Numbered from the stretch's first letter, positions 34,936 to 53,695 are shown. The stretch is DNA of 64,000 bases from Bacteroidales bacterium (GCA_016285515.1 JAEEQW010000003.1:122316-186315); one strand, 5' to 3'. Notes: a model not told the origin generated them from the letters alone. Made by a program: numbers and translations.

Positions 34936-34963
34936 AAAGAAATGTGTTTAGATTATATAACTG

Positions 34964-34971
34964 CAAAGATA
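34964..34971 (-). promoter_or_regulatory. -7 promoter box for the TPR/beta-barrel pair
   Basis: The reverse strand reads TATCTTTG, 29 nt upstream of the ATG at 34935. Confidence 0.5.
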
Positions 34972-35002
34972 TAATTTTTATTGTTAGCTTGAAAAATAAT
35001 TG

Positions 35003-35010
35003 TACTTTTG
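35003..35010 (+). promoter_or_regulatory. -7 promoter box for rnpB
   Basis: TACTTTTG, immediately upstream of the predicted RNase P RNA 5' end. Confidence 0.5.
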
Positions 35011-35011
35011 C

Positions 35012-35378
35012 AGAGTGGTTTGTTCTATCGCTGCGAAGAGATTCGGAGAGGAAAGTCGGGACAACACAGAGCACCATACTTCCTAACAGGAAGGGGCAGG
35101 GGAGACTCTGTCACAGATAGCGTCGCAGAAACTATACCGCCGTGGAATTTTATTTCGCGGTAAGGGTGAAAACGTGAGGTAAGAGCTCACGCTATGATAT
35201 GGCAACATATTGTGGGGACAAGCCTTATGGGTTGAAATGCCAAATAAACCGGAGAGTCTGCTTTGCAGGCTAAGGGTTGCTCGTCCGATTCCGGGGGGTA
35301 GGCAGATAGAGGTGCGAGGTGACTCGCATCGTAGATAAATGATAGGACACGACAGAATCCCGCTTATAGAGCCACAAG
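35012..35378 (+). ncRNA. rnpB: RNase P RNA, bacterial type A
   Basis: The universally conserved blocks GAGGAAAGTCGGGAC (near 35050) and ACGACAGAATCCCGCTTAT (near 35350) are present. P1 pairing is GTGG...CTAT with ATAG..CCAC, and a strong terminator follows. The ends are approximate (about +/-5 nt). Confidence 0.9.
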
Positions 35379-35417
35379 GAAATCTTCCGGGTTTTTCTCG
35401 GAAGATTTCTTTTTTTG
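35379..35417 (+). terminator. Intrinsic terminator after rnpB
   Basis: An 11-bp stem, GAAATCTTCCG (35379-89) with CGGAAGATTTC (35399-409), followed by a T-run. Confidence 0.75.
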
Positions 35418-35429
35418 TCAAGAATTAAT

Positions 35430-35437
35430 TATCTTTG
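35430..35437 (+). promoter_or_regulatory. -7 promoter box for hdeD-like gene
   Basis: TATCTTTG, 52 nt upstream of the ATG at 35489. Confidence 0.5.
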
Positions 35438-35488
35438 TGGCATGAAAACTATAAATTTCAAATAATTAACTAATAAAATCAAACAAGT

Positions 35489-36052
35489 ATGAAGAAAAGT
35501 ACAAAAATCATGCTCGTTGTTACGGGCATTCTACTAATCGTCTTGGGGATCGTTTGCATCTGCAATCCAGTCGAGACCCTCTTCTCTATGGCATGGCTCA
35601 TAGGTTTCTTAACACTCTTGGCAGGTGTTAGTAAACTTGTATTCGGACTCAGAACGCAGAATTTCCTGCCTAATAGCGGTACACGTATCCTGACAGGTGT
35701 TTTTGATGTCATATTAGGTATCTTCTTGTTGTTCAACAACATCTTCGTTGCCATATCTCTTCCTTTGATTTTCGCTATATGGCTCATTATTGAGGGTATT
35801 ATTCTTGTTGTTCAGTCGTTCGACTACAAAAAAGCTGATTACCAAGGTTGGTGGTGGCTCCTGCTTATGGGTATCGCCGTGGTTGTCCTCGGTTTCTTTG
35901 CCATGAAGAACCTTGAGGTGACTGGCATGACCATTTCGATTATGTTCGGTTGCGCTGTCATGCTTCTCGGTTTCGCTTATCTCATTGCCTTTTTCGGCAT
36001 CAACAAGTTTCAGAAGAAAGTGAAACAGGTTAAAGACGCTTTCCGCGAATAA
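35489..36052 (+). CDS. HdeD/DUF308 family membrane protein
   Basis: 187 aa with six TM helices and the repeated DUF308 pattern (GILLIVLGIVCI.NP). Confidence 0.75.
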   Translation: MKKSTKIMLVVTGILLIVLGIVCICNPVETLFSMAWLIGFLTLLAGVSKLVFGLRTQNFLPNSGTRILTGVFDVILGIFLLFNNIFVAISLPLIFAIWLIIEGIILVVQSFDYKKADYQGWWWLLLMGIAVVVLGFFAMKNLEVTGMTISIMFGCAVMLLGFAYLIAFFGINKFQKKVKQVKDAFRE

Positions 36053-36058
36053 ATTTCA

Positions 36059-36092
36059 TAAAAAAAAGCTTGCGATCGCAAGCTTTTTTTTT
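36059..36092. terminator. Bidirectional intrinsic terminator (perfect palindrome)
   Basis: AAAAAAAAGCTTGCGATCGCAAGCTTTTTTTTT. It lies between the convergent hdeD-like and ATPase genes and overlaps the ATPase stop codon. Confidence 0.75.
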
Positions 36093-38127
36093 ACACTTTC
36101 AATGCCCGCATAGAGTTGAACACTGCCAAAACAGTGACACCTACGTCGGCGAAGACGGCCATCCACATCGTTGCAATGCCAAATGCGGCGAGGACGAGTA
36201 CGGCAACTTTCACGCCGATGGCAAACCAGACATTTTGCTTGGCGATGCTCAACGTACGCCGTGCAATACGGATTGCGATGGCGATTTTCGATGGCTGGTC
36301 GTCCATTAGCACTACGTCGGCTGCTTCGATGGCGGCATCGCTGCCGAGACCGCCCATGGCAATGCCCACGTCGGCACGGGCCAAACCAGGCGCGTCATTG
36401 ATGCCGTCGCCCACGAAAGCGAGAAATCTGCCTTCTTGTTTTTCATGAAGCAGTTGCTCCACATACTGAACCTTGTCGGCGGGCAGTAGCTCAGCGTGAT
36501 ACTCGCTCAAACCGAGTTTCTGTGCAACGTCCTCGCCAACTTCCTTACGATCGCCGGTGAGCATAACCGTGCGGCTTATGCCAAGCGACTTCAAGGCGGC
36601 GATGGCTTCCGCGCTGTCTTCCTTAATCTTGTCGTTGATGACGATATGCCCCGCATATTCGCCATCGATGGCGACATGTATAATCGTGCCGACATGATGG
36701 CAGTCGTGCCACATTGCGCCGATGGAATCCATCATCTTTGTGTTGCCTACGCAAACAATCTTGTCGTCCACCTTGGCGCGGATGCCGTGGCCGGCAATTT
36801 CCTCTACCTCGCTGATGCGGCAACCATCGTTGGCTTCATCCGGGAAGGCGTCGCGCAAGGCTGCTCCTATTGGATGTGTGGAGAAATGCTCCACATGTGC
36901 GGCGAGGTGTAATAACTGATGCTCATCGCAAGTGCCTGGATGTACCGCTGTAACCTCAAAACGGCCGTGCGTAAGTGTGCCTGTCTTGTCGAAAACCACC
37001 GTGCCGACCTTGGCCAACACGTCCATGTAGTTTGAGCCTTTGACGAGGATTCCTTTGCGCGAGGCACCTCCGATGCCTCCAAAGAATGTGAGTGGCACAC
37101 TGATGACTAATGCGCAGGGACATGACACCACAAGGAACATCAGGGCGCGATAGAGCCAGATTGGGAATACACCTGCAAAGTTGCCGGAGAACAACGGCGG
37201 AAGCAGAGCAAAGGCGATTGCGGCAAAGACCACTATCGGGGTATAGACGCGGGCAAATCTCGAGATGAAAGTCTCGCTTTTCGACTTGCTTTCGGTGGCG
37301 TTTTCCACTAAATTTATGATTTTAGAGACCGTGCTTTCGCCGAAACTCTTTGTCGTACGCACCTTGATGACGCCCGAAAGGTTAATGCAGCCGGAAATAA
37401 CCTCATCGCCTTCGACGATTTCGCGTGGGACGCTTTCGCCAGTCAAGGCTACGGTGTTCAAAGAGGTGTTGCCTTCGATGACAATGCCATCGAGCGGCAC
37501 TTTCTCGCCTGGTTTGATGATGATGGTTTCAGCAACCTCAACCTGTTCGGGGTTGATGCTTTCCACCTTGCCGTTGCGTTCCACATTGGCCACGTCGGGG
37601 CGAATGTCCATCAGATGTGCGATGCTTTCGCGGCTCTTGCCTTCGGCGTAGGACTCAAAGAGTTCGCCGACTTGGAAGAACAGCATGACAAAGACCGCTT
37701 CGGGGAACTGTGTCTCTGCATTAGGCAGGAAGCCGATGCAGAGTGCCCCAATGGTCGCAATCGACATAAGGAAATGTTCGTTGAAAGCCTCGCCGTGTGC
37801 CAAACCTTCGGCAGCTTCTTTGAGAGTGTTGAAGCCTATGAACAGGTAAGGGATGAGATAGACTAGGAGCAGCTGCCACGTAGGTAGGTCGCAGCGTTTC
37901 TCGATGATGACCGCTGCGACGAGCAGCGCCACCGCAATGACAATCTTGATTATTTGGCTTTTCAGACTGTCTTCGTGCTCGTGGTGATGGTGTTCGTGAT
38001 CGTGACCATGTTCATGCTCATGATGGCGCTCGTGTTCGCAGCACTCATGTTCATGGTGCTGTTGTTTGTGTTGATGCTCATGTTCATGTGAGTAGCATTT
38101 TTGTTCGTGATGATGTTCGTGTGCCAT
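36091..38127 (-). CDS. Heavy-metal-translocating P1B-type ATPase (Zn/Cd/Co-type) with a His-rich N-terminus
   Basis: 678 aa with motifs TGES, SCPC (TM6), DKTGTLT and GDGINDAP. The N-terminal ~54 aa are HEHEH-type His/Glu-rich with one CC pair, not a ferredoxin-fold CxxC HMA domain. Confidence 0.9.
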   Translation of the reverse strand: MAHEHHHEQKCYSHEHEHQHKQQHHEHECCEHERHHEHEHGHDHEHHHHEHEDSLKSQIIKIVIAVALLVAAVIIEKRCDLPTWQLLLVYLIPYLFIGFNTLKEAAEGLAHGEAFNEHFLMSIATIGALCIGFLPNAETQFPEAVFVMLFFQVGELFESYAEGKSRESIAHLMDIRPDVANVERNGKVESINPEQVEVAETIIIKPGEKVPLDGIVIEGNTSLNTVALTGESVPREIVEGDEVISGCINLSGVIKVRTTKSFGESTVSKIINLVENATESKSKSETFISRFARVYTPIVVFAAIAFALLPPLFSGNFAGVFPIWLYRALMFLVVSCPCALVISVPLTFFGGIGGASRKGILVKGSNYMDVLAKVGTVVFDKTGTLTHGRFEVTAVHPGTCDEHQLLHLAAHVEHFSTHPIGAALRDAFPDEANDGCRISEVEEIAGHGIRAKVDDKIVCVGNTKMMDSIGAMWHDCHHVGTIIHVAIDGEYAGHIVINDKIKEDSAEAIAALKSLGISRTVMLTGDRKEVGEDVAQKLGLSEYHAELLPADKVQYVEQLLHEKQEGRFLAFVGDGINDAPGLARADVGIAMGGLGSDAAIEAADVVLMDDQPSKIAIAIRIARRTLSIAKQNVWFAIGVKVAVLVLAAFGIATMWMAVFADVGVTVLAVFNSMRALKV

Positions 38128-38184
38128 ATTCTTGCAATTAAATATATTTCATCGAAATTTCGACTGCAAAGAAACGGCAAAAGT

Positions 38185-38203
38185 TTTGCAACTGAGTTGC
38201 AAA
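38185..38203. promoter_or_regulatory. Perfect 8-3-8 inverted repeat upstream of the metal ATPase (candidate operator)
   Basis: TTTGCAAC-TGA-GTTGCAAA, 58-76 nt upstream of the ATPase ATG at 38127. A second palindrome, TCGAAATTTCGA, lies at 38152..38163. Confidence 0.4.
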
Positions 38204-38259
38204 GATGATGGAGTTGAAACATGCGAAGAATCACCACGCCCTGACTGATAACTGATATT

Positions 38260-38742
38260 TCAGTGCGGAGATGCAAACTCTTTCACCACGTCTTCTGTCA
38301 TGCGTTGCACAGTCCATTCGTCCAATGGAATGGCTCCGATGGAGCGATAGAATGCCAGCGAAGGAGCATTCCAGTCGAGACATATCCATTCCATGCGACC
38401 GCAGTTGCGCTCAATGGCGATGTCAGCCAGGTATTTCAGGATGGCCTTGCCATAGCCCAAGCCGCGTTTTTCGGGGATAATGAAGATATCTTCGAGATAA
38501 AGCCCTTTGCGCCCGACGAAAGTCGAGAAGTTGTGGAAAAATAAGGCAAAGCCGATGACCACACCGTCTTCTTCGGCAAAGATGACCTCAGCGGCCTTCT
38601 CCACGAAAAGCGATTGGTACAAGGTGGCTTCGTCGGCGACGACTTCATCGGAACATTTTTCATAGGCGGCTAATTTCTTGATGAACTCAAGTACGAGGCT
38701 GGTTTCTTCAGGCTTTGCCGGACGGATATTGAACTTTGGCAT
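38260..38742 (-). CDS. GNAT family N-acetyltransferase (diamine/spermidine acetyltransferase-like)
   Basis: From the ATG at 38742 the protein reads MPKFNIRPAKPEETSLVLEFIKKLAAYE. The acetyl-CoA motif RGLGYGKAIL is present. Confidence 0.8.
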   Translation of the reverse strand: MPKFNIRPAKPEETSLVLEFIKKLAAYEKCSDEVVADEATLYQSLFVEKAAEVIFAEEDGVVIGFALFFHNFSTFVGRKGLYLEDIFIIPEKRGLGYGKAILKYLADIAIERNCGRMEWICLDWNAPSLAFYRSIGAIPLDEWTVQRMTEDVVKEFASPH

Positions 38743-38781
38743 GATGCAGAGTTTATACGGTTTATACGTTGATAATGTCTG

Positions 38782-38789
38782 CAAAAATA
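38782..38789 (-). promoter_or_regulatory. -7 promoter box for the GNAT gene
   Basis: The reverse strand reads TATTTTTG, 40 nt upstream of the ATG at 38742. This supports the shorter start. Confidence 0.5.
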
Positions 38790-38883
38790 AAGAATTTATG
38801 TGATTATTGCCGAAACTTTTCGCGAGTCGCCATGGGGTGCGTTTATCGGTGGCCATGCCCGTTGGCGGAAGGCACAGATTTCG

Positions 38884-39252
38884 CTATTTGAGAAATACGA
38901 AGAAAACCGCCAACACCAAGCAGAAGAAAGCCGCCAGGTGATTCCATTGAATGGTCTGGCCTTTGAATGCGAACATCACGATAACCGTAAAAACAGTAAG
39001 TGAAATCACTTCCTGAATCACCTTAAGTTGCAGAAGATTGAAGGGGCCGCCGTTCCCCTGGAAACCAATCCGGTTGGCAGGTACCGTCAGACAATACTCG
39101 AAGAAAGCGATTCCCCACGAAAACAGGATAACAACGATAAGTGGCCAGCCGGTCGAAATTTTCATTTCACTGAGTTTGAGATGTCCATACCATGCGAATG
39201 TCATGAAAACATTCGAAAATACAAGCATGATGACAGTCCAGATTCCTTGCAT
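38884..39252 (-). CDS. DMT-superfamily small membrane protein (DUF486-like)
   Basis: 122 aa with four TM helices, starting MQGIWTVIMLVFSNVFMTFAWYGHLK, which is typical of DUF486. Confidence 0.7.
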   Translation of the reverse strand: MQGIWTVIMLVFSNVFMTFAWYGHLKLSEMKISTGWPLIVVILFSWGIAFFEYCLTVPANRIGFQGNGGPFNLLQLKVIQEVISLTVFTVIVMFAFKGQTIQWNHLAAFFCLVLAVFFVFLK

Positions 39253-39378
39253 AGCTTTATTTTGGTTTATTTTTATTGCAAAAAATCAACTACGAACTTT
39301 TGCGATGCAAAAATAGGTGTTTTTGTTTTACTGTCCGTATGTTTTTTCAAAAAAACTTCTGCGTAAAATTGGCTTTCG

Positions 39379-39783
39379 TTATTTCTTTTTACAACGATAT
39401 TCCCTGTACCCTCCACCTCCAAGACCACCATAGGAACAGTTTATATATAGGCTGTCCGATTGAGAGAAACGGCCATCAAAATGGCGACAATAGGAACTGC
39501 TTTCAATAAGTTTTAAGTTTCCATCAGAAGAAACCTGACAACGCCAGTACCAAGTGGAGTCGGACAACATAATCATGACACAACTATCCTCTGAGTCCTC
39601 TACAAATAGATTACCAGATTCATATTGAACAACCATATTGCTATCATTAAGCATCCAAGAATTGATCGTCACATCATAACTAAATTGCCCCATCCAGCTC
39701 ATACGGTAGTCTTTTTCACATGCGCATGTCAACAGTACAAGCAAGGCTGTCACTGTTAACAAAAATAATCTGCCTTTTTTCAT
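39379..39783 (-). CDS. Hypothetical Cys-rich lipoprotein
   Basis: 134 aa with lipobox LLTCAC after a signal peptide. The mature part has about 9 Cys and a GGLGGGG run. I recognise no family. Confidence 0.55.
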   Translation of the reverse strand: MKKGRLFLLTVTALLVLLTCACEKDYRMSWMGQFSYDVTINSWMLNDSNMVVQYESGNLFVEDSEDSCVMIMLSDSTWYWRCQVSSDGNLKLIESSSYCRHFDGRFSQSDSLYINCSYGGLGGGGYREYRCKKK

Positions 39784-39948
39784 TTTGTGTTTTGTTTTGA
39801 TTTCATTTTATGTTACAAAAATAAATTACCTTATTGGGAATTAATATTTTTTTAGTTTTTTTTAAGAAATTTTTCTTCTTACCTCTTGACATTTTTATGT
39901 CAACTCATTGTTTTTGTGTTGGTTTCCTTTTTTCGGCGACAGTTGAAA

Positions 39949-41226
39949 TTAATTGTTGATGACCGTCTCGATGTGTTGCAGGAACGCTTCCAGGGGGACC
40001 AATCCATCCGCATTGGGTTCTAATCCGTTGAAACGTATCGGGAATGAGACTGGAGGGTTGTCCAAGTCAAGGAGACTCATCTGGCGCAGTTGTTCCGTGC
40101 TTTGATAAACGAGGCGGACGCAGGTGAAATTCTGCCCTTCCTTATCTTCCCATTTTTCTATGACGAGCTTGGCGCCTATCGGTGTTTTTCTCTCGATGGT
40201 TTGTGGCAGAAGGTACTCTTCGACGTTGAGCGCTGCTAGTACGCTGCCTATATTGGAGTCATGGCCGCAGAGAAATGTGAATTTCCTGTCATCCTTTTGC
40301 AATTCGTCGAGTATCGTCTGCAGCAGCGGGCGGGCAACCTGACGAGCTACGATGGGAGCGGTGAAGAGTACATCGCCGTACCAGTCCTTAATTTCCGAAA
40401 TTTTCATCCATTCATTGGTAGTCAGCGTGTCACCGAAAGAAGCCTTAAGGTCGTCAGCCTCTTCATAATATTGCAGCACGAGTGCATCGGCGGCCTGACA
40501 TGCCAACCGGAATGAGCCGCCTAAAGCAGGTTCACGGTTTTGTACCAGATGAATAATAAGGTCATCGGTATGAAAGCAACAGGTGGCGCCGTTGCGGCAG
40601 GCTTCGCTTTGGCTCATGTCGAGCACCTCTTCAAGGAGACGGAAGTTTTCCGACATCTTCTCACTGATGCCGTTCAGTCCATTTTCGCCTCCCATGGCTT
40701 CAAACTGTTTCATTGCATCAGCCCTGAATTTTTCATCCACTTGTGTGAGTTGTGGATTGAATACAGGGTCCATTCTTCCTATATCGCAATGGCGTTCGAT
40801 GTGGATGTTGGCCAAAGGCAGCATCCCTGACGAAAAAAATTGTGCCGTTGCCACCGTGCGCTGTAAGGAGTTGGCGTAGAACCGTATGGTGCTTTCTTCG
40901 GGGATTTCATGTTCATCTATCAGTCCTTCGTTGACGAGCCACTTCCGGAAATACTGTCCCATCATTGTTTCCAACACGCCACCGCGCAACGAAAGTTCGC
41001 CTGGTGCAGAAGACCACATGAACCATTTGTGTGGAGTGATGCGCATCAGCGTAGAGCGTTTGCCCGAAATAGGGGAGCGGATGTTGTGCCGGCTCAGCAC
41101 CACCACTTCTTTCAAGGTGTATCTTTCATGGAAATCGGCAGGATGTCCGTTTTGCGCTGAAACGGAAGTAGGCAAAAGCGCATATATCGTGAGGATGGCG
41201 ATAATACAAAGATGTGAGGTTTTCAT
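39949..41226 (-). CDS. Histidine acid phosphatase (AppA/Agp-like phytase or glucose-1-phosphatase)
   Basis: From the ATG at 41226 the protein starts with signal peptide MKTSHLCIIAILTIYALLPTSVSAQ. The catalytic motifs are SRHNIRSP (RHxxRxP type) and CGHDSNI (HD). Confidence 0.8.
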   Translation of the reverse strand: MKTSHLCIIAILTIYALLPTSVSAQNGHPADFHERYTLKEVVVLSRHNIRSPISGKRSTLMRITPHKWFMWSSAPGELSLRGGVLETMMGQYFRKWLVNEGLIDEHEIPEESTIRFYANSLQRTVATAQFFSSGMLPLANIHIERHCDIGRMDPVFNPQLTQVDEKFRADAMKQFEAMGGENGLNGISEKMSENFRLLEEVLDMSQSEACRNGATCCFHTDDLIIHLVQNREPALGGSFRLACQAADALVLQYYEEADDLKASFGDTLTTNEWMKISEIKDWYGDVLFTAPIVARQVARPLLQTILDELQKDDRKFTFLCGHDSNIGSVLAALNVEEYLLPQTIERKTPIGAKLVIEKWEDKEGQNFTCVRLVYQSTEQLRQMSLLDLDNPPVSFPIRFNGLEPNADGLVPLEAFLQHIETVINN

Positions 41227-41309
41227 GACTTGGAATATAGTGATAGTTTCTATATCAGCTACAAAGATAATCATGTAAGAGACATTTTTGTCCATTTCAT
41301 AAAAAAATA

Positions 41310-41317
41310 TATCTTTG
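41310..41317 (+). promoter_or_regulatory. -7 promoter box for the L,D-transpeptidase gene
   Basis: TATCTTTG, 30 nt upstream of the ATG at 41347. Confidence 0.5.
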
Positions 41318-41346
41318 TACTCGATAAATGACTATGATATCTTACA

Positions 41347-41979
41347 ATGAATAAATTGACTATTATATTTTGTTTGTTAATGGCTATGTTCCTCATGACA
41401 TCGTGCGGCTATTCATCGGTCAGAGCTGCCGAGGAACATAGTGAAACTTCAAGTGTGGATACAACGGAAGTTGCCGTAGGAAGTATTGACTCTATTAAGC
41501 CTGATAGTGCAACTTTCTATTCGGAAGTTGTTGACAAAATGAACTGTTTTATACTTGTCTCGAAGCCTGAATACAGGCTTTATGTCTGCGAGGTGGTGGG
41601 CGATGATACCGTAAAGCGGGTGCATTATCCTGTTTGCGTGGCACTCAATAAAGGGCAGAAACAAAAGAGAAAAGATATGCGCACGCCGGAATGCTCTTTT
41701 GATAATCCTTTCACTATCATACAGATACAAGACGCCTCCAATTGGTATCATGATTTTGGAGATGGTCGTGGCTCGATTTTGGCATACGGCAACTGGTTCC
41801 TGCGCTTGGACACGCCTGGCTTTTCGGGTATTGGCATTCATGGGAGCACCAACAACGAGAGTTCGGTGCCGGGTAGGGGCAGCGAGGGGTGCATTCGCCT
41901 CCGGAACGATGATTTGGACGACTTGAAGGAAAAATATGCTTTTGTTGGAATGCGTGTGGTGATTCTTCCCGATGAATAG
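41347..41979 (+). CDS. L,D-transpeptidase (YkuD domain) lipoprotein
   Basis: 210 aa with lipobox LMTSCG and the catalytic motif GIHGST...GRGSEGCIRL. Confidence 0.85.
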   Translation: MNKLTIIFCLLMAMFLMTSCGYSSVRAAEEHSETSSVDTTEVAVGSIDSIKPDSATFYSEVVDKMNCFILVSKPEYRLYVCEVVGDDTVKRVHYPVCVALNKGQKQKRKDMRTPECSFDNPFTIIQIQDASNWYHDFGDGRGSILAYGNWFLRLDTPGFSGIGIHGSTNNESSVPGRGSEGCIRLRNDDLDDLKEKYAFVGMRVVILPDE

Positions 41980-42006
41980 GAGCACCCACTTGCAGATATC
42001 CTATTT

Positions 42007-43170
42007 TTACAACGATGCCACCAAAATCTCTTTGATGTCCTGCTCAGTCAGCGGTGCGTATGCGTTCTCCAGTCCTTCGTTGACAGCGATGTGGTGTGCC
42101 ATTTCGTCGAGGCGGCTGTCATCGATACCCACTTCGCGCAAGTGCATCGGAATGTTGATGCTCTCGAAGAAACGGTAGGTCTCGTTGATGGCTCTCTCGG
42201 CAATTTCTTGCTTAGGCAGCGTGGAATCGATGCCGAATACGTTGACGCCATATTTCACGAAACGGTCGATGGTCTTCTCGTTGAGGATATGACGCATCCA
42301 GCGTGGGGTGATGATGGCCAGGCCTTCGCCGTGTGTGATGTCGTAGTAAGCGCTCAGAGCGTGCTCGATTCCATGACAGGGCCAACCTGAAGGGCTATTG
42401 CCGAGCGATAGGATACCGTTGCATCCGTAGGTGCAGCAGAGCATCATTTCGGCGCGTGCAGTGTAGTCTTCCGGGTTTTCTAAACATTTGCGACCGTTGA
42501 CCATCAGCGAGCGCAGCATTGACTCGCAGAAACCATCGTTGAGTAGGGTGGTGTCGGCAGCGAAGTACTGCTCGATGGTGTGGTTCATCGCATCGGCGAT
42601 ACCGGCAGCGGTTTGTTTGCGGCTTACAGTAAAAGTGTAGGTGGGGTCAAGAAACGAGACGCGCGGGTAAAGCAGCGAGTCAATATAGCCTATTTTGTCG
42701 TTGGTCTCGGTGCGTGAGATGACGCCGCCGGCATCGTATTCGCTACCTGTTGCGGCGAGGGTTATGATATCGACTATAGGCAGGGCTGCCTTCGCTTTTA
42801 CTTTGTAGGTGATGAGGTCCCACGGGTCGCCATCATAGCAGGCTCCGGCGGCGATAGCCTTCGAGCAGTCGAGCACTGAACCTCCGCCCACTGAAAGGAT
42901 TACATCCACATTATGTTCTTTGCACAGGCGTACACCGTCCAATACGCTGGGGTCATATTTTGGGTTGGGCTGGATGCCGCCAAGTTCCACGATTTCGTAC
43001 CCTTTCAGCAGTTCCATCACTTTCTGGTATAGTCCTATTTTCTTGATGCTCCCACCGCCGTAGGTGAGAAGTATTCTCTTTCCGAACTGCTCCATCACCT
43101 TAGGCAGTTTCTCGACAACGCCCTTGCCAAAAATAAGGCGTGTTGGAGTCATGTAATTAAAGTTCTGCAT
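42007..43170 (-). CDS. Iron-containing alcohol dehydrogenase (butanol dehydrogenase/YqhD-like)
   Basis: 387 aa with GGGS nucleotide-binding motifs (TYGGGSIKK, SVGGGSVLD) and metal-binding His residues (HGIEHALS). Confidence 0.9.
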   Translation of the reverse strand: MQNFNYMTPTRLIFGKGVVEKLPKVMEQFGKRILLTYGGGSIKKIGLYQKVMELLKGYEIVELGGIQPNPKYDPSVLDGVRLCKEHNVDVILSVGGGSVLDCSKAIAAGACYDGDPWDLITYKVKAKAALPIVDIITLAATGSEYDAGGVISRTETNDKIGYIDSLLYPRVSFLDPTYTFTVSRKQTAAGIADAMNHTIEQYFAADTTLLNDGFCESMLRSLMVNGRKCLENPEDYTARAEMMLCCTYGCNGILSLGNSPSGWPCHGIEHALSAYYDITHGEGLAIITPRWMRHILNEKTIDRFVKYGVNVFGIDSTLPKQEIAERAINETYRFFESINIPMHLREVGIDDSRLDEMAHHIAVNEGLENAYAPLTEQDIKEILVASL

Positions 43171-43341: not shown

Positions 43342-43349
43342 TATTTTTG
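43342..43349 (+). promoter_or_regulatory. -7 promoter box driving the cobalamin riboswitch leader
   Basis: TATTTTTG, about 6-10 nt upstream of the predicted aptamer 5' end. Confidence 0.5.
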
Positions 43350-43353
43350 TCGC

Positions 43354-43512
43354 CGGATTCAGGTTCCAAAAGATTAATAGGGAATCCTGTGGAAATCAGG
43401 AGCTATGCCCGTAGCTGTAAGTTCAATGATAGACCTGCGGCATCAACGTCACTGACCTTGTGTCGGGAAGACGTCGCTGGTTTGAACAAGCCAGAAGACC
43501 TGCCTGTATCCT
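43354..43512 (+). promoter_or_regulatory. Cobalamin (B12) riboswitch aptamer
   Basis: Conserved core elements are present: TTAATAGGGAATCCTGTGGAAATCAGGAGCTATGCCCGTAGCTGTAAG, then GTCACTG...GGGAAG, and the B12 box GCCAGAAGACCTGCC at 43490..43504. P1 pairs CAGGT (43360-64) with ACCTG (43498-502). Confidence 0.85.
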
Positions 43513-43526
43513 ATATTCGCAGCTTT

Positions 43527-43585
43527 CGGGAACAAAAGCGTGGGAATCAAAGTGAAACGGATTTCCCGTTTCTTTTTCTCATTTT
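43527..43585 (+). terminator. Riboswitch expression platform / candidate intrinsic terminator
   Basis: There are alternative pairings: CGGGAA (43527-32) with TTCCCG (43563-68), and GGGAATC (43542-48) with GATTTCCC (43560-67). The U-rich tract GTTTCTTTTTCTCATTTTG follows. Confidence 0.45.
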
Positions 43586-43631
43586 GTCCTATTGCTGCTG
43601 TTTTTAAGTTGAACATGTAACAATTGTGTTT

Positions 43632-44799
43632 ATGAAGAAACAGTATCAAGCAGTTACGGCCGAGGAAGCCGTCAAAGTCATCAAGTCGGGCGACCATGTC
43701 CACATCAGCTCGGTGTCGAATGTGCCGCAATGTTTGGTTAAAGCGCTATGCGACCGGGGACGTGCCGGTGAATTGAAAAATGTTTACATCCATCACCTTC
43801 ACACTGAAGGCGCCGCTCCTTACGTACAGCCGGAATTTGAAGGCATCTTCCAGCACAACGCCTTTTTCGTCGGATCCAATGTGAGGGAGAGTGTGCAGAA
43901 AGGATTGGCGGACTACATTCCCGTTTTTCTTGGCGAGACCTCAAAACTCTATCGTGAGCGTTATATCAAGTGCAATGTGGCGATGATTCAGGTGTGTCCG
44001 CCTGACAAGTTCGGATACGTCTCTTTGGGGCCGTCAGTGGATGCCACATTAGCCGCCATGGAGAGTGCTGAGTTCGTCATTGCCGTGGTCAACAAGTATG
44101 TGCCCCGAACCTTCGGCGATGCTTTGGTACATATCAGTAGAATCAATGTCTTTGTAGAAGATGACACTTCATTACTCACCGTTGACATGCCTGAACCCAA
44201 TGAAGTTGAGAAGACTAAAGGAGGGCGTTATCACGGGCAACAACAAGAAGCTCAACAAAGGCAAAATAGTCTCAACTTTTGTGATGGGTTCACAGAAAAT
44301 TTACAATTTCATCGATGGCAATCACGAAGTGTTGCTGATGGACGTGGAATACACCAACGACCCCTTCATCATCGCACAACAACCCAAGATGACTTCCATA
44401 AACTCTGGCATTCAGATTGACTTGTCGGGACAAGTTTGTGCCGACTCCTTGGGCGAGCGCATTTATTCTGGTGTAGGTGGACAGATCGATTACGTCTATG
44501 GCGCTTCGCGCTCCATAGGTGGCAAGGCCATCATCGCAATGCCTTCCACAACACGCAAGGGTATCAACAAGATTGTACCCACATTGGACTTGGGTTCAGG
44601 TGCTGTCACCACACGCAACCACATCCACTGGTTCGTCACAGAATACGGCGCTGTGAACCTATATGGTCGCTCGTTGCAAGAACGTGCCAAACTTATCATC
44701 TCGGTGGCACACCCACAGTTCCAGGAGATGCTTGATGAGGCAGCCTTCAAACGTTTTGGACCACATTATCATTACATTTGCAAAACCAATATCATTTAA
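43632..44799 (+). pseudogene. 4-hydroxybutyrate/acetyl-CoA CoA-transferase family gene, disrupted by an internal deletion plus frameshift
   Basis: Two overlapping ORFs in different frames (43626..44420 and 44161..44799). Frame A matches the family N-terminal half up to ...MPEPNEVEK (about 44214). Frame B matches the C-terminal half from ...LKEGVITGNNKK (about 44215) to the end. About 50 residues expected between them, including the GIG.IP and GIHTEM catalytic-Glu region, are absent. Confidence 0.65.
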
Positions 44800-44810
44800 T
44801 TAAAGTAATT

Positions 44811-45107
44811 ATGGTAAATTTCAGTATTTGGGAGGTCTTGTTCCTCTGTTGCTTTGCGATTAGCTGGCCGGTGTCCATCGCAAAGTCGCTTCGCACCAAG
44901 ATAGTCATAGGTAAAAGCCCGCTTTTCATGTCTCTTGTTATCTTGGGATATATCTTTGGTATTATCCATAAACTATTGTATAGCAGGGATATAGTAATAT
45001 GGCTATATGTATTTAATGCCTTATTGGTTAGTTTTGACCTATTCTTGTATTTTCTATATATCGGACGGAATCGCAAACAGTTGGAAAGCAACAACGGCAA
45101 ACTATAG
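44811..45107 (+). CDS. Small 3-TM membrane protein, PQ-loop/SemiSWEET-like (tentative)
   Basis: 98 aa from the ATG at 44811. The pattern FAISWPVSIAKSLRTK after TM1, followed by two more TM helices, resembles PQ-loop/LAB_N-type 3-TM proteins. Confidence 0.5.
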   Translation: MVNFSIWEVLFLCCFAISWPVSIAKSLRTKIVIGKSPLFMSLVILGYIFGIIHKLLYSRDIVIWLYVFNALLVSFDLFLYFLYIGRNRKQLESNNGKL

Positions 45108-45113
45108 GATGAT

Positions 45114-45707
45114 ATGGGAAAGATTAATTTTGTAGAGATCTTCGGCTCATTTATTGTGATGTTCGCCATCATTGACATTTTTGGGTCTATCCCCATTTTC
45201 ATTAGTATCCGGGAGAAACAACAGAACATCAAGGCGGCGCAAGCCTGCCTCACGGCTTTGGGGCTTTTTCTGCTCTTCTTCTTTGCCGGTGATGCCCTAT
45301 TAAGGCTGTTTGGCATCAATTCGGCCTCTTTTGCAGTAGCTGGCGCGTTTGTTCTGTTCATTTTGGCGGTTGAGATGGTGTTGGGGCGCGACATCATCAA
45401 AAACGAGCCAAACAGTAGCAGTGTGAGTGTTGTGCCTGTCGCTTTTCCGCTTATTGCCGGTCCGGGAGCCATTACCGCCCTGCTTTCCCTCCGTGCAGAC
45501 CACGCCACATGTAACATTCTGCTGGGATTGCTGTTGAATATTATTTTGGACTATATGGTAATCAAGTATCTTGACAAGATTCAGCGTCTGTTAGGCAACA
45601 ATATGATATTCATCATCCGCAAATTTTTTGGTGTTATTTTGCTGGCTATGGCTGTGAATATGTTTGTAAGCAACATAGCCGTTATTATATCACAAGTGAC
45701 GAAGTAA
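45114..45707 (+). CDS. MarC family (UPF0056) membrane protein
   Basis: 197 aa with N-terminus FGSFIVMFAIIDIFGSIPIFISI and an internal PLIAGPGAIT motif typical of MarC. Confidence 0.8.
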   Translation: MGKINFVEIFGSFIVMFAIIDIFGSIPIFISIREKQQNIKAAQACLTALGLFLLFFFAGDALLRLFGINSASFAVAGAFVLFILAVEMVLGRDIIKNEPNSSSVSVVPVAFPLIAGPGAITALLSLRADHATCNILLGLLLNIILDYMVIKYLDKIQRLLGNNMIFIIRKFFGVILLAMAVNMFVSNIAVIISQVTK

Positions 45708-45796: not shown

Positions 45797-47143
45797 TTAT
45801 TTCAAGGCATTTATCCATTCTGCAATATCGCTGAGAACCTCGGGTGATATAGTCTCTTCTATCTGACGGTACTCGTTCATAAGACCGGTATTGCAGTGTT
45901 GGAAAAGGTGGTTGAGTCCGGCGTATTCCTTCGTCACGTTCTTCTTTGACTTAGGTAATAGCCGCTCGATGGCGGTAAGGTTGAGAGAGGAAATGACCTG
46001 AAAGTCGCGGTCACCGTTGAGCGCGAATACAGGGCAGCGTGTGGCGGCAATGTTGGCAGATGGGTCATAGTCTATAAACCACTTATACCAAGGAACTTGC
46101 TGGATTTCCGGCGAATGTCGTACTGAGTCGGCGGTCATGGTGCCTTTTCCTCCATATATTTCAACCATGCGGTTTTGTTGTGATGCTATAAGCGTGTCGC
46201 CCTTTACACCAGGCCCAGCTAACGAAACGAGGAAGTCTGTCTTTCCTTGTGCAGCAAGCATGAAGCCTATCAGTCCGCCTTCGCTATGACCAATTAGTCC
46301 GACTTTAGAGAATGCTTTGAGGCTACGCAGATATTCCAGTCCTGCAGCTGCATCACGAGCGAAGTCCTCGCTCGTGGCATTCTTCAAATCGCCACCTACG
46401 GATGCACCCGTGGCGCGGTCGTCGTAGCGTAGCGAAGCAATTCCCTGACGTGCCAGATAGTCGGCAATGACGAGGAATGGCTTATGGTCGAAGATTTCTT
46501 CGTCCCGGTTCTCCTCACCACTGCCCGTAACAAACAAGAGAACAATGGGTTTCTTTTCTGACTTTGCGTTGTATCCTACAGGCCACGTTAGAGTTCCGGC
46601 CAGTGTGGCACCGTCACTTTCATTTCTGAACGTCACCTCTTCTGTCTCGTATGGAAATGGCGGCTTTGGTGTCTGCGGACGATTAAGCACTTCTTCACCC
46701 TTTATCAGCACCAGCGGAAGAGACATGCCATTTTGGGTGAACGTTCCGTCGAGTTTGCCATCTTTTAGCCGTGCTGCGTAAGTGAGGTTGAGCTGCTTTA
46801 CCGATACTGCCAAAGAATCATCCGACAGAAAATCCTTATAGCAACCGATGCCTTTGACACTCTGGTCGGGGCTATCCATCGTCACTGTCACGTAGCCGTC
46901 GGCCTGCTCAAGATTAAATACCAGCGTCAGATTTGCTACGCCTAAGTCAAGTTTGCCTGACCAAGAACCGAGCAGGGTAGTGGTGGACTGAACTTTGTTT
47001 TGGGCAAATGTGACCATCGATGCGAGCATCAGAAGGAAGGTGATGATGTGTTTTTTGTTTTCCAGTTTCTTCGCTATGATGTTCAGTACGGTGTAAATGC
47101 AGCCGTTAGCGTGTGGGCTGCCATTGATATGGAGTGCATTCAT
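45797..47143 (-). CDS. Secreted alpha/beta hydrolase (serine hydrolase)
   Basis: 448 aa with nucleophile elbow GHSEGG and a C-terminal alpha/beta fold. The N-terminal ~25 aa before the signal-like segment (KKHIITFLLMLASMVTFAQ) look odd, so the start is uncertain. Confidence 0.7.
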   Translation of the reverse strand: MNALHINGSPHANGCIYTVLNIIAKKLENKKHIITFLLMLASMVTFAQNKVQSTTTLLGSWSGKLDLGVANLTLVFNLEQADGYVTVTMDSPDQSVKGIGCYKDFLSDDSLAVSVKQLNLTYAARLKDGKLDGTFTQNGMSLPLVLIKGEEVLNRPQTPKPPFPYETEEVTFRNESDGATLAGTLTWPVGYNAKSEKKPIVLLFVTGSGEENRDEEIFDHKPFLVIADYLARQGIASLRYDDRATGASVGGDLKNATSEDFARDAAAGLEYLRSLKAFSKVGLIGHSEGGLIGFMLAAQGKTDFLVSLAGPGVKGDTLIASQQNRMVEIYGGKGTMTADSVRHSPEIQQVPWYKWFIDYDPSANIAATRCPVFALNGDRDFQVISSLNLTAIERLLPKSKKNVTKEYAGLNHLFQHCNTGLMNEYRQIEETISPEVLSDIAEWINALK

Positions 47144-47184
47144 ATTTTGGATGTTTGGAATATATATCTGTAAGTTAATCAGAG

Positions 47185-47192
47185 CAAAAATA
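47185..47192 (-). promoter_or_regulatory. -7 promoter box for the alpha/beta hydrolase gene
   Basis: The reverse strand reads TATTTTTG, 42 nt upstream of the ATG at 47143. Confidence 0.45.
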
Positions 47193-47233
47193 CTAATAAT
47201 CTACAAAATGAAACTTATTATGAAAAAAATGTC

Positions 47234-47241
47234 TAACTTTG
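47234..47241 (+). promoter_or_regulatory. -7 promoter box for the orphan 157-aa gene
   Basis: TAACTTTG, 42 nt upstream of the ATG at 47283. Confidence 0.5.
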
Positions 47242-47282
47242 CATCGTATCCTTGAAAACCAAAGATTTAAGAACACCTCAAT

Positions 47283-47756
47283 ATGACCAATTTGACAGAA
47301 GAACAGCATAAAGCTCAAATGGAGGATATGAAGTCGTTCGACGAACAGATGCCTTCAGTGGGTATATTTTGGTACGACCCCAATGACCATACCCTTTTCG
47401 GAGTACGCAAGAAAGAACTGACACCACGCGAAGTGGAAGAGGCTGCCGTCAAAGGGAAGCCGTTTATCAATTACCCACAACTGCATCGGCAAGTGTGGGC
47501 CAGGGAGTATTTCCGCGCACAAGCCAAACATTCAGATACGAAATTCAAGGGCGATTATACGCAGATTCCACGCGGACGCGTGACATGGACAATCGACAAG
47601 TTCATTGTTTTGGTAGGCCATTGGGCTGAGCCTATTCAAGATGAGTTGTCTGAACTGCTGGAACAGGAGTTCTCGCTGCCATACTTCGAATTTGTGTATG
47701 ATGAGCACTGGGATCTAGGTCACGGATGGTCGGGTGACATGCCCACAAGCAGGTAG
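47283..47756 (+). CDS. Hypothetical cytoplasmic protein, family not recognised
   Basis: 157 aa with no TM helix or signal peptide and its own promoter box. It is the only plus-strand gene between minus-strand blocks. Confidence 0.6.
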   Translation: MTNLTEEQHKAQMEDMKSFDEQMPSVGIFWYDPNDHTLFGVRKKELTPREVEEAAVKGKPFINYPQLHRQVWAREYFRAQAKHSDTKFKGDYTQIPRGRVTWTIDKFIVLVGHWAEPIQDELSELLEQEFSLPYFEFVYDEHWDLGHGWSGDMPTSR

Positions 47757-47804
47757 CATTCTTGCCAGTCTGATTCAGTTTCTTTCATGTTGTTAGAATA
47801 ATCT

Positions 47805-49025
47805 TTACCATTCTACCTCTTTTGTTTCACCTTCAGGAGTGCGGAACACCATGCTTGTCACCTTCTCTTTATCTAATAACATGACGTAGGTGCAAAGGTC
47901 GTCAATTGGCGTCCCATTGGCGGTGACCAAATAGTCACCCGTGCGGATTCCCTTTCGGTAGGCCTTCGAGCCATTGCGCACCACTGCCTGTATTGCCCCA
48001 AGGCTATCGTTTTCAGATGCTGCGATAAAATTGACCCCATTTCCCTCGTTTTTCACTACTTGCTCAAGGTTTCCATCATGCGGAAGAAGCACAAGGCGCT
48101 TCTTATGCGCATTGATAATCAGAGAATTGTGTTTTAACAAAGCCGAACCTGTTTTCATGCTATGGGAGTTTGTCGACAGCCACACGTCTTTGAGCGTAAG
48201 ACCGTCCAACTTCACAGTGGGGATGCGAAGTGTCCTATATGAGATGGTGTCCGCGGAACGGCCAAAAAAGCCATATTGCGCAACAACCGAGGTGTCCCTC
48301 TGCACTGTCAGCCCGTCGATGGTTTGCTGCATCTTCTCGTCGTTTTTCGACCAGCGCTTCAGCCAATATTCAGGAAAGTCGAACCAGCCTCCGAGCCATC
48401 CCGTATCAAAGAGCATTTTGGCACGAACGAAGGGAAAACCCACCTTCACCCTTGGCACGTCGTCCTCGAGATATTTCAGCGTAGGTTGTCCTTTCTCCTC
48501 TTTGGCAAAGAAGCGCTTGCGGTCGGTCATGATCAGCAGGCTGTCTTTCGTGTCGAGCTTGAACGACAGGCCTTTGGCGACAAGGTTAAAGCCCAAGCCG
48601 CCATCGAACTTTCCGCATAAAATTTCGTTCATCTCTTCTTGTGCGATGATAGGGTAACCAGTAATAACGGTGGAGCCCAACGTCATCGATGGGACCATAA
48701 AGATGGGAATTTTATGCTTTGTGTTTTGGGAATCGGTAATCGTTATGTTATCGCCTGATGGTTGCATCCAAGCCTCATCGCCCGCGATCCAAAATCCATA
48801 CTCTGATCCCGTGTCGAACATCATACGTTTGAGTTCTCCGTCAATTTCCACCGGAACAATCACTGCACCATCGACAATCTCGACCTTGATGGTATCCACA
48901 AAATCGTGACGGGAAAGGGTGAAGTCCGTGAAATCCATTACTTGGGCTGTTGCCGACAACGATGTCAACACCAACAAGAAGACGGCGATAATTCTAAAAA
49001 CTCTTGTTTTCATCTTTTGATTCAA
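47805..49025 (-). CDS. Secreted retropepsin-like aspartyl protease with a C-terminal PDZ domain
   Basis: 406 aa with a signal peptide and two D-T-G type motifs (MFDTGSEYG and LFDTGWLGG). A PDZ-like C-terminus is present (GSKAYRKGIRTGDYLVTANGTPIDD). Confidence 0.7.
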   Translation of the reverse strand: MNQKMKTRVFRIIAVFLLVLTSLSATAQVMDFTDFTLSRHDFVDTIKVEIVDGAVIVPVEIDGELKRMMFDTGSEYGFWIAGDEAWMQPSGDNITITDSQNTKHKIPIFMVPSMTLGSTVITGYPIIAQEEMNEILCGKFDGGLGFNLVAKGLSFKLDTKDSLLIMTDRKRFFAKEEKGQPTLKYLEDDVPRVKVGFPFVRAKMLFDTGWLGGWFDFPEYWLKRWSKNDEKMQQTIDGLTVQRDTSVVAQYGFFGRSADTISYRTLRIPTVKLDGLTLKDVWLSTNSHSMKTGSALLKHNSLIINAHKKRLVLLPHDGNLEQVVKNEGNGVNFIAASENDSLGAIQAVVRNGSKAYRKGIRTGDYLVTANGTPIDDLCTYVMLLDKEKVTSMVFRTPEGETKEVEW

Positions 49026-50068: not shown

Positions 50069-50087
50069 ATAAGTAATTATTAAGTAA

Positions 50088-50906
50088 TTATTTAAGAGCT
50101 TTCACAGGACATTCTTTAGTGCATTTGTGGCACAGGATGCATTCGGTTGCGTTTTTGCGCTTGCGGGAATCGTTGTTCACTTCGACTTCCATTGGGCAGA
50201 CCTTTAGGCATTTGCCACAGTTGATGCATTTGCTTTCATCGCAGTGGATGCGGAGCAGAGAAAAATAACTCATCGGTTTGAGGAAGACCGTGATAGGGCA
50301 GATATATTTGCAGAAGGCGCGGTTGTCCTTAAACACCACAGCGAGGGTGATGCCGACCACGTAATAGACCAAGTTGCCGATGAGGAACAGCATGAACATT
50401 GTGTGCTTGTTGGCTTTGTCAAAATGGAACAGCAGGAGGACAAGGATTAACGATAAGGCGAACACGATATATCGTATGAAGCCTATCTTCTTTCTTGGGC
50501 CCTGTGGCTGTTTGAAGGGGAGAAGGTCGAGAATCATGGCTGTCCAACAGGCGTAGCCGCACCAGCCGCGGCCGAAAAGCATCGGTCCGAAGATCTTGGC
50601 GATAAGATAATGCAACACGCCAGCACCAACCACACCGGAAAACAGATAGTACCAGAAGCCTTCAATCTGCATGTTTTCCTTGCAAATCAAACCGAGAAAG
50701 ACGAGAATGTAGGCGCCAACGCCGAACTGGACGAACTCGCGGGCGTATTTCTTTCCCGCTGCCTGCAAGATTCCACCGATTCCGATACAGAGGCCAATGT
50801 AGGTGAAGTTGAGCAAATAGAACAGATTTCCCGTTGCCAGCCAGAGTGATATGGCTATGGCTTCAAATACGGCAAATATGATTATAGGTGATTTGTACTT
50901 TTTCAT
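50088..50906 (-). CDS. Membrane-bound 4Fe-4S ferredoxin-type protein (NapH/MauN-like)
   Basis: 272 aa with about 6 TM helices and two C-terminal CxxCxxCxxxCP clusters (CINCGKCLKVCP and CILCHKCTKECP). Confidence 0.8.
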   Translation of the reverse strand: MKKYKSPIIIFAVFEAIAISLWLATGNLFYLLNFTYIGLCIGIGGILQAAGKKYAREFVQFGVGAYILVFLGLICKENMQIEGFWYYLFSGVVGAGVLHYLIAKIFGPMLFGRGWCGYACWTAMILDLLPFKQPQGPRKKIGFIRYIVFALSLILVLLLFHFDKANKHTMFMLFLIGNLVYYVVGITLAVVFKDNRAFCKYICPITVFLKPMSYFSLLRIHCDESKCINCGKCLKVCPMEVEVNNDSRKRKNATECILCHKCTKECPVKALK

Positions 50907-53685: not shown

Positions 53686-53695
53686 GAAATATTGG

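Follow-up and report, generated by a model that had tools for sequence, protein, structure and literature searches.

A base-composition step beside rnpB probably marks the left border of an acquired genomic island in a Bacteroidales bacterium

The base composition of a Bacteroidales chromosome changes abruptly beside rnpB, the gene for the RNase P RNA, and the question raised by this locus is what the GC-richer DNA on its right-hand side represents. The DNA that was analysed (the window) is a stretch of 64,000 nucleotides (GCA_016285515.1, JAEEQW010000003.1:122316-186315). A first-pass annotation made from the sequence had placed the switch at the rnpB/hdeD locus and had offered three explanations: a large intra-phylum acquisition that has lost its mobility genes, a chimeric join in the assembly, or a strong codon bias specific to gene classes.

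Left flank and position of the step

Positions 1-34,935 of the window (~41% GC), as read from Pfam matches and called genes, hold a block of native core genes. The CCA-adding enzyme, miaA, recQ, fmt, Mur ligases, tRNA-Gly, PPDK and truA come first, followed by the F-type ATP synthase, asparaginase, gyrB, a 585-aa protein and a 1003-aa TPR protein. GC at third codon positions (GC3) is 34-50% in this block with a single exception (59% at 17,715-18,671), and GC remains at 41% over 10 kb leftward beyond the window start. The TPR gene adjoins rnpB (35,012-35,382, plus strand), whose identity as bacterial class A RNase P RNA is confirmed (Rfam RF00010, 229.8 bits). The two genes are neighbours in L023, L024, L009 and L011 too, and rnpB is the last element that is syntenic with relatives before the GC-rich DNA. 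One gene, hdeD (35,489-36,052, plus strand), lies alone in the 709 nt between the rnpB end and the step. PF03729 bears out its assignment as a DUF308/HdeD-like membrane protein. Its composition is intermediate (GC 42.9%, GC3 53%) and it is missing from the rnpB-pepC spacer of L023; it may be either a native gene or a part of the GC-rich block. The protein is identical across the assemblies found by exact look-up, with the surrounding DNA 99.0-100% identical. Between hdeD and the convergent ATPase gene is a bidirectional intrinsic terminator, A8-GCTTGCGATCGCAAGC-T8, with a predicted fold of -16.2 kcal/mol. Its palindrome is perfect, as had been noted, and occupies 36,060-36,091, one base in at each end from the 36,059-36,092 given at first.

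The best single change point over the 64-kb window is at 36,103 (log-likelihood ratio 131), at the 3' end of the ATPase gene and immediately to the right of the terminator. GC is 41.4% over 1-36,102 and 47.9% over 36,103-64,000. Per gene, GC3 is 44.5% on the left (27 ORFs) and 58.2% on the right (26 ORFs; Mann-Whitney p = 1.3e-8); GC2 also differs (p = 2e-4), and GC1 shows no significant difference (p = 0.11). GC-normalised tetranucleotide profiles correlate at r = 0.91-0.92 inside each half and at 0.76-0.81 across the halves, and the relative synonymous codon usage (RSCU) of the GC-rich block correlates with that of the left core at only 0.39. The abrupt switch, for which GC had been counted by hand in nine 60-nt lines (all nine exact on recount), is thus confirmed by GC, GC3, tetranucleotides, codon usage and the change point.

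The step is mainly in coding DNA, because intergenic GC barely changes across 36.1 kb (30.9 vs 32.9%, p = 0.16, not significant). Per 10 kb, the left side has 16.3 stop-free frames of 100 codons or more and the right side 26.2, a direct consequence of its lower density of stop trinucleotides (3.65 per 100 positions, against 4.61 on the left); this agrees with the longer and more numerous antisense ORFs reported after about 36 kb. The promoter box TAnnTTTG does occur in both halves, as claimed, upstream of 9 of the 13 left and 8 of the 14 right genes that have a spacer. Third-position GC skew, compared as a possible sign that the block has not equilibrated, gave an estimated replication component of ~0.19 in the core and ~0.10 in the block, which has just four genes on the plus strand.

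Extent, content and strain variation of the block

The left border of the GC-rich DNA is at 36,091-36,103. The right border is outside the window, between a Por_Secre_tail gene and pepC, where GC3, which is 55-75% over the genes from the RND pump to the Por_Secre_tail protein, drops to 41% at pepC. The block of the strain to which the window belongs extends from 36.09 to 91.06 kb in window coordinates (~55 kb). On ERZ1461801 contig-81_31 (180,917 bp), where window position w maps to record position 73,654 + w, it is ~44 kb long, and the series pepC-yqeY-smr-DUF3127-arginase-GT2...gatD-gatB begins ~44-45 kb to the right of rnpB. The division of the window at the step therefore stands, but the two parts are not open-ended halves: the GC-rich DNA is a contiguous block of 44-55 kb with sharp borders, within the range of a genomic island (about 10-200 kb). 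Nor do the GC-richer 28 kb seen at first pass form a single clean unit; they belong to a strain-variable mosaic that ends beyond the window.

These 28 kb (36,091-64,000; 47.9% GC, GC3 58%) begin with the gene of a Cd/Zn-type heavy-metal P-type ATPase (36,091-38,127, minus strand; PF00122/PF00702; GC 53%, GC3 63%). Positions 38,260-43,170 encode a GNAT acetyltransferase, DMT_6, two small ORFs, a histidine phosphatase, a YkuD transpeptidase and an Fe-alcohol dehydrogenase. On the plus strand at 43,344-45,707 are a cobalamin riboswitch (Rfam RF00174, 96 bits), an acetyl-CoA hydrolase/transferase gene, a 98-aa ORF and MarC. The acetyl-CoA hydrolase/transferase gene is split in the window by a 152-nt deletion at 44,216 and is intact in L004/L005 (439 aa). 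An alpha/beta hydrolase, a 157-aa ORF, a PDZ protein, a DUF4369-thioredoxin-like protein, a 4Fe-4S ferredoxin-domain protein and an FMN reductase follow (45,797-51,477), and next to them is a xylose-use cluster on the minus strand (51,545-56,641) with xylA, PEMT, TfoX_N, xylB and an MFS sugar transporter. The remainder, also on the minus strand (within 56,814-64,000), comprises an FMN-reductase-like protein, a CDP-alcohol phosphatidyltransferase, an ion channel, an ECF-type sigma-70 factor with its neighbours, DUF1905, DUF1295 and an MMPL gene that runs off the window. The cargo of the whole block includes RND/MatE efflux genes and a TonB-dependent receptor.

The content varies by strain. In L011 the ATPase gene has been deleted through an 8-nt microhomology, leaving its last 12 nt, and in L009 the 39.4-41.3 kb stretch is swapped for an AAA_14/DUF4143 gene. 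Cassettes differ between strains; one is of low GC (GC3 35-40%), and a strain-specific cassette holds eight ORFs without Pfam matches. The left and right parts diverge together across strains, with identities (left vs right) of 99.2 vs 98.4-99.2% in three strains, 97.9 vs 93-95% in L009 and 96.4 vs 94.6% in L011.

The same site in a relative and the codon regime of the block

L023 (34% GC) is the nearest relative that has a long contig; its atpA, gyrB and TPR proteins are 87%, 85% and 57% identical to those of the host. It keeps the order ATP synthase-asnA-gyrB-585aa-TPR-rnpB and continues as TPR-rnpB-pepC-yqeY-smr-DUF3127-arginase, the host order and orientation minus the block. Only 67 nt separate rnpB from pepC in L023, with no GC step and no remnant of the block seen in this spacer, and the borders of the block coincide to the gene with the synteny gap. 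Conserved synteny of both halves with the same composition pattern in relatives, which would have pointed to ordinary heterogeneity, is thus contradicted by L023. Polarity rests on this one informative relative, because the outgroup L118, looked up to set it, is rearranged at the locus (no rnpB beside the TPR gene) and L024 is cut inside rnpB.

Both flanks of the block, taken together as the reference for the composition of the host chromosome (~75 kb of core), share one codon regime (RSCU r = 0.94, core-left vs core-right). The block is unlike them in GC, GC3, tetranucleotides and RSCU (r = 0.35-0.39), is uniform in RSCU over most of its length, and correlates at 0.92 and 0.91 with non-homologous genes of L105 and L025; the core correlates with L023 at 0.73-0.76. 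Among the matches listed, the closest homologues of the block's genes sit in 49-50%-GC contexts. RUG11296 carries, in the same order over ~10 kb, homologues of the ATPase (83% identical), the CoA-transferase (94-96%, with the same cobalamin riboswitch), MarC (75%) and a phosphatase (65%). L105 (49% GC) has xylA (93%), xylB (78%), the MFS transporter (83%) and DUF1295 (72%), and the genes that flank its xylA/xylB/MFS operon differ from those in the block. The ATPase is 72-80% identical to enzymes of rumen Prevotella/Xylanibacter among the matches listed and nests inside their clade in a neighbour-joining tree (drawn without support values); the best 80 ATPase loci in species-representative genomes are mostly in a 45-60% GC context. 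For seven of eight genes of the block GC3 is below that of their high-GC homologues, as expected for partial amelioration. The host clade itself is sparse: TPR identities fall through 99, 61, 58, 51 and 43%, the atpA cluster at 90% has six members, and conserved core proteins are only 85-89% identical even to the nearest clade members. The clusters that hold proteins of the block are crowded (for the ATPase, more than 120 clusters at 80-90% identity; 280 members for xylA and 393 for the Fe-alcohol dehydrogenase).

Origin of the block

The bounded block, the gap in L023 and the match of codon regimes favour the first of the three original explanations, an intra-phylum acquisition, and the step at 36.1 kb probably marks the left edge of a mosaic genomic island that was gained by horizontal transfer and is no longer mobile. 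It lies between rnpB(-hdeD) and pepC in a rumen Bacteroidales species that is uncultured and has a GC of about 41%, and its cargo comprises predicted genes for the efflux of metals and drugs, for xylose use and for redox enzymes, a CoA-transferase gene under a B12 riboswitch and a TonB-dependent receptor gene. The codon regime that shaped these genes would be that of rumen Bacteroidales near 50% GC, and for the ATPase the affinity appears Prevotellaceae-like. The genes may have drifted only partly toward the host composition, which would explain the common position of the switch in GC, GC3, k-mers and codon usage. The step, the two borders, the gap in L023, the codon match and the strain differences are observed; which lineage gave the DNA and which received it, the family of the donor and the route of entry are inferred. 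RUG11296 and L105 could be co-recipients rather than donor-like lineages. Entry would predate the divergence of the sampled strains; the DNA was probably recombined into the chromosome once conjugation or another kind of transfer had brought it in, possibly in several events, and was later remodelled by deletions and cassette swaps.

The island resembles classical genomic islands in the Hacker-Kaper sense, in their degenerate 'anchored' form, in its size of 44-55 kb, its atypical GC, codon and k-mer composition, the empty site in a related genome, its position next to a stable-RNA gene, its accessory metabolic, transport and resistance cargo and its strain-variable content. It differs in that the anchor is rnpB and not a tRNA or tmRNA gene, in lacking flanking direct repeats, an integrase and other mobility genes, and in a GC above that of the host core. 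Acquired DNA is more often AT-richer than its host. Like the lateral sugar-utilisation and efflux cassettes of gut and rumen Bacteroidales, it carries xylA-xylB-MFS, RND/MatE and TonB-dependent receptor genes at 78-96% protein identity, which have different flanking genes in the other rumen Bacteroidales that carry them. Unlike these cassettes, it has no SusC/SusD pair evident in the window, and its genes form a mixed set, not one functional locus. As a large block exchanged among Bacteroidales, with accessory genes and off-host GC, it also recalls conjugative transposons and ICEs of the CTnDOT type, whose GC is often off-host too; their tyrosine integrase, tra/mob genes, excisionase and att sites were not found in the parts of the island that were read or Pfam-called, and the plasmid collection gave no match to the island.

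A single integrative or conjugative element, aimed at the 3' side of rnpB and later stripped of its integrase and att sites, would explain the adjoining stable-RNA gene, the size, the codon usage that is uniform over most of the island and the ~10 kb of gene order in common with RUG11296. We consider it unlikely. The Pfam calls across the island include no integrase or transposase and no integrase plus conjugation module (tra/mob, T4SS), in agreement with the first-pass annotation, and the one Phage_integrase-family gene, which is XerC/D-like and of native composition (GC3 41.7%), is 12 kb past the right border. No duplicated rnpB 3' segment was found, nor an att-like repeat, in line with the first-pass annotation: the longest word shared by the two borders is an 11-nt A-run, equalled in 19% of shuffles. 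Megablast of 25 kb of the island gave no phage match and, for plasmids, only ~110-nt ATPase-motif matches in Proteobacteria. Moreover, hdeD and the terminator stand between rnpB and the step, the best relatives differ by island segment (L025 vs L105), and cassettes vary by strain, the low-GC one included. Lacking integrase, transposase, conjugation genes and border repeats, the island is now immobile. The literature, searched for rnpB as an integration site of islands, yielded a single paper, on cyanophage integration to judge by its title.

Improbable, too, is an ancestral block that the whole clade once had and the L023 lineage later lost, in which case the gap in L023 would record a deletion and not an acquisition by the host. 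The site is resolved in one relative, L118 being uninformative, and deletions do happen in the region, as with the ATPase gene of L011. Such a loss would leave unexplained why the block shares its codon regime with roughly 50%-GC organisms and not with its flanks, and why its proteins reach 83-96% identity to those organisms when conserved core proteins reach only 85-89% even to the nearest clade members; the 67-nt spacer, moreover, has no remnant. We give slightly less credence still to native heterogeneity, in which selection on gene class would have given an ancestral block its GC-rich codons. The concentration of the step in coding DNA and mostly at third positions, the nearly equal intergenic GC, the Bacteroidota promoter box in both parts and the missing mobility genes would suit it. 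We reject it because one regime is common to the core genes on either flank, whatever their expression class (ATP synthase, PPDK, gyrB, recQ, miaA, gatB, pepC), and because the switch coincides with the synteny break against the step-free locus of L023. GC2 and the tetranucleotide signature normalised for GC shift as well, and the island genes have unrelated functions. That contigs of two organisms were joined at ~36 kb, for which the metagenomic source, the sharp change point at a terminator with A/T runs and the local assembly-like defect at 44,216 might speak, is virtually out of the question, since the TPR-rnpB-DUF308-ATPase junction, which a chimera would show in one assembly only, recurs in more than 10 assemblies that different studies obtained independently with different assemblers (including L120, a 94%-identical sister lineage; metagenome scan with TPR alignment, four loci), both borders occur together on single contigs of 181, 239.5 and 241 kb, and the left and right parts diverge together across strains.

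An acquired island is thus the reading that we prefer, and as such it is an ordinary genomic island that adds no new mechanism. A more speculative idea, which we hold to be improbable, is that the 3' flank of rnpB is a recurrent landing site for integrase-less DNA in this Bacteroidales clade, a recombination hotspot at which Prevotellaceae-type accessory cassettes are taken in and exchanged, perhaps helped by repeated AAA_14/DUF4143 genes. If it were true, islands would have in rnpB a further type of anchor besides tRNA and tmRNA genes, and a site-specific integrase would not be needed. For genome scanning, the locus shows that an island can be told from an assembly chimera by a step in GC3 when synteny is compared with a single relative as well, and composition-based binners could split contigs that carry such islands. 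For the biology of these bacteria, the locus would be a fully bounded case of gene flow between lineages in the rumen, in which a low-GC, sparsely sampled Bacteroidales lineage took up ~50 kb of DNA with xylose-use, efflux, metal-resistance and redox genes, their codon usage matching that of roughly 50%-GC rumen Bacteroidales.

Composition step at 36.1 kb

A likelihood scan of GC along the window gives 36,103 as the single best change point (log-likelihood ratio 131). It coincides with the 3' end of the gene for a heavy-metal P-type ATPase (36,091-38,127, minus strand), directly right of the hdeD/ATPase terminator. GC is 41.4% to the left (the core) and 47.9% to the right (the island). The 27 ORFs on the left have a per-ORF GC3 of 44.5%, against 58.2% in the 26 on the right (Mann-Whitney, p = 1.3e-8); GC2 per ORF is also higher on the right (p = 2e-4), with no significant difference in GC1 (p = 0.11). 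GC-normalised tetranucleotide profiles correlate at r = 0.91-0.92 inside each half and 0.76-0.81 across the halves. Intergenic GC is nearly equal (30.9 versus 32.9%, not significant); thus, the step lies mostly in coding DNA. Stop-free frames of at least 100 codons number 26.2 per 10 kb on the right versus 16.3 on the left, a surplus of long antisense ORFs that arises because stop trinucleotides are fewer there. The abrupt switch and the excess of antisense ORFs described in the first-pass annotation are both borne out, and its nine hand counts of GC in 60-nt lines are all exact.

The structured RNAs in the window are rnpB (35,012-35,382), a cobalamin riboswitch (43,344-43,521) and a tRNA-Gly(CCC) (13,153-13,226, minus strand). 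The tRNA is overrun by the longest ORF (TTG start) of a MurL-like gene (11,776-13,260, minus strand), whose true start must be further downstream; gene callers report 453-494 aa. One core gene, Band_7/SPFH (17,715-18,671), is a GC3 outlier (59% versus 34-50% in its neighbours). Cumulative GC skew rises steadily in the core (about +0.1 per window, independent of gene strand) and levels off in the island, where the minus strand holds 22 of the 26 larger genes. The replication component of third-position skew is estimated at ~0.19 in the core and ~0.10 in the island, the latter with only four plus-strand genes.

Junction, borders and synteny

A chimeric join, one of the explanations first offered for the step, is rejected on the basis of independent assemblies: by exact-protein look-up, more than 10 assemblies from various projects and assemblers share the TPR-rnpB-DUF308-ATPase junction, contigs of 180,917 and 239,514 bp each span the window's left-end gene, the ATPase gene and genes past the right border, and a 241,001-bp contig carries some core and some island genes of the window plus the same right-flank genes. 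The island predates the split of the sampled strains, with the left junction retained even in the 94%-identical sister lineage L120. Across strains, the two parts diverge in step: three strains are 99.2% identical to the window in the left part and 98.4-99.2% in the right, and two variant strains are 97.9% versus 93-95% (L009) and 96.4% versus 94.6% (L011) identical.

Leftward of the window, GC is still 41% over 10 kb more of housekeeping genes. Rightward, the GC-rich DNA goes on through the rest of an MMPL gene, DUF6088, AAA_14/DUF4143, a TonB-dependent receptor, MatE, an OEP-RND-MFP efflux pump, OsmC and DeoC. On ERZ1461801 contig-81_31, whose record coordinates equal window position w plus 73,654, the right border falls at ~153.9 kb of the record, with a Por_Secre_tail gene (GC3 56%) on its left and pepC (GC3 41%) on its right; pepC is followed by yqeY, smr/DUF2027, DUF3127, arginase, GT2, gatD and gatB (GC3 35-46% throughout). 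The island is ~44 kb long in that strain and ~55 kb in the window's own, where it runs from 36,091 to ~91,056 (106-kb contig of GCA_016648615.1). The extra length is a strain-specific right-end cassette of ~9-10 kb, absent from the contig-81_31 strain and located outside the window at ~79.5-89 kb (contigs L113, 11,877-12,963, and L114, 7,754-13,571). It encodes HTH_3, a 177-aa ORF, a caspase-like Peptidase_C14 and a second AAA_14/DUF4143 protein; eight of its ORFs, counting the 177-aa one, have no convincing Pfam match. It is partly low in GC (GC3 35-40%) and may have arisen separately, as a defence-type or surface-protein cassette.

Identity of the TPR protein falls fast among relatives (99, 61, 58, 51 and 43%). 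The 58% relative, L023 (770-kb contig, GC 34%; atpA 87%, gyrB 85% and asnA 74% identical to the window), shares the order ATP synthase-asnA-gyrB-585aa-TPR-rnpB. There, rnpB is followed after 67 nt by pepC-yqeY-smr-DUF3127-arginase...gatD-gatB, the right-flank genes of the island in the same order and orientation, and no GC step is seen at the locus. As the rnpB and pepC blocks adjoin in L023, the island fills the gap between them. In the more distant relative L118 (TPR 43%, GC 37%) the locus is rearranged, and in L024 the contig ends inside rnpB, which leaves L023 as the one relative informative on gain versus loss. GC varies widely within the host clade: at the locus it is 34% in L023, 39% in L024, 41% in the window and 37% in L118, and core orthologues have a GC3 of 25-30% in L023, against 43-44% for L024 and 43-50% for the window. 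The DMT_6 gene lies in the island here (38,884-39,252), and its 57%-identical L023 counterpart (17,998-18,318) is a core gene flanked by asparaginase and atpG, which could reflect relocation or independent acquisition.

Origin of the island

Codon usage, closest homologues and cluster crowding each favour gain of foreign DNA, the acquisition option raised at the outset. For relative synonymous codon usage, r between the island and the core is 0.39 on the left side and 0.35 on the right, versus 0.94 between the two cores and 0.73-0.76 between the cores and L023. Against non-homologous genes of two organisms of roughly 50% GC, the island reaches r = 0.92 (L105) and 0.91 (L025). Gene-class-specific codon bias, another early suggestion, is rejected.

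In L025 (rumen MAG RUG11296, GC 50%), the ATPase (83% identical), histidine phosphatase (65%), riboswitch-CoA-transferase (94-96%) and MarC (75%) stand in the same relative order as in the island. L105 (1.33-Mb scaffold, GC 49%) carries MFS-xylB-xylA (83/78/93%), with neighbours otherwise unlike the window's, and DUF1295 (72%). Conserved core proteins, by comparison, do not exceed 85-89% identity with even the closest members of the clade. The best 80 ATPase loci among species-representative genomes are chiefly from Prevotella, Xylanibacter and Prevotellaceae, in 45-60%-GC contexts, and a neighbour-joining tree without support values places the window's ATPase inside a rumen Prevotella/Xylanibacter clade. 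The 90% cluster of atpA has six members, all on same-species contigs; clusters of xylA and Fe-ADH hold 280 and 393 members, and for the ATPase there are more than 120 clusters at 80-90% identity. GC3 is below that of the high-GC homologues in seven of eight island genes, which fits partial amelioration. Bacteroidota-type TAnnTTTG boxes are present in both parts, in agreement with the intra-phylum source already proposed. Overall, the island is probably of foreign origin.

At 44,216, inside the riboswitch-controlled acetyl-CoA hydrolase/transferase gene (43,626-44,799), 152 nt are missing relative to L004/L005 and RUG11296. Two overlapping ORFs thus stand in place of a gene that is intact at 439 aa elsewhere. 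The L001/L006 contig has a GC-richer, more divergent allele from just before 44,216 and ends 115 nt past it; hence, the gap could come from a strain bubble in the assembly instead of being a true frameshift.

Remodelling and classification

L011 has no ATPase gene, window positions 36,106-38,257 being deleted between 8-nt microhomologies, TTTCA(A/G)TGC. The final 12 nt of the gene remain (L011 9,580-9,610 versus window 36,091-36,105 plus 38,258), which shows loss in L011 and not gain in the other strains. In L009, an AAA_14 gene replaces 39.4-41.3 kb and MBOAT follows YkuD. The island's variable points repeatedly carry AAA_14/DUF4143 genes: the window's strain has three copies, and L009 has one at its replacement (L015 3,388-4,524; L114 6,262-8,998; L009 7,986-9,353); a DUF6088 fragment adjoins one of them. 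Because the best relatives differ by island segment, several events that built up a patchwork are no less likely than a single one.

No integrase, transposase or transfer genes were found among the Pfam-called genes of the island, its border repeats do not exceed chance level, and 25 kb of its DNA gave no match among phages and, among plasmids, only ATPase-motif hits of ~110 nt in Proteobacteria. Neither an ICE nor a conjugative transposon, the block lacks the direct repeats and mobility genes of a genomic island but has the size, composition, absence in a relative, stable-RNA neighbour and accessory cargo of one; "degenerate (or anchored) genomic island" or "region of genomic plasticity" describes it best.
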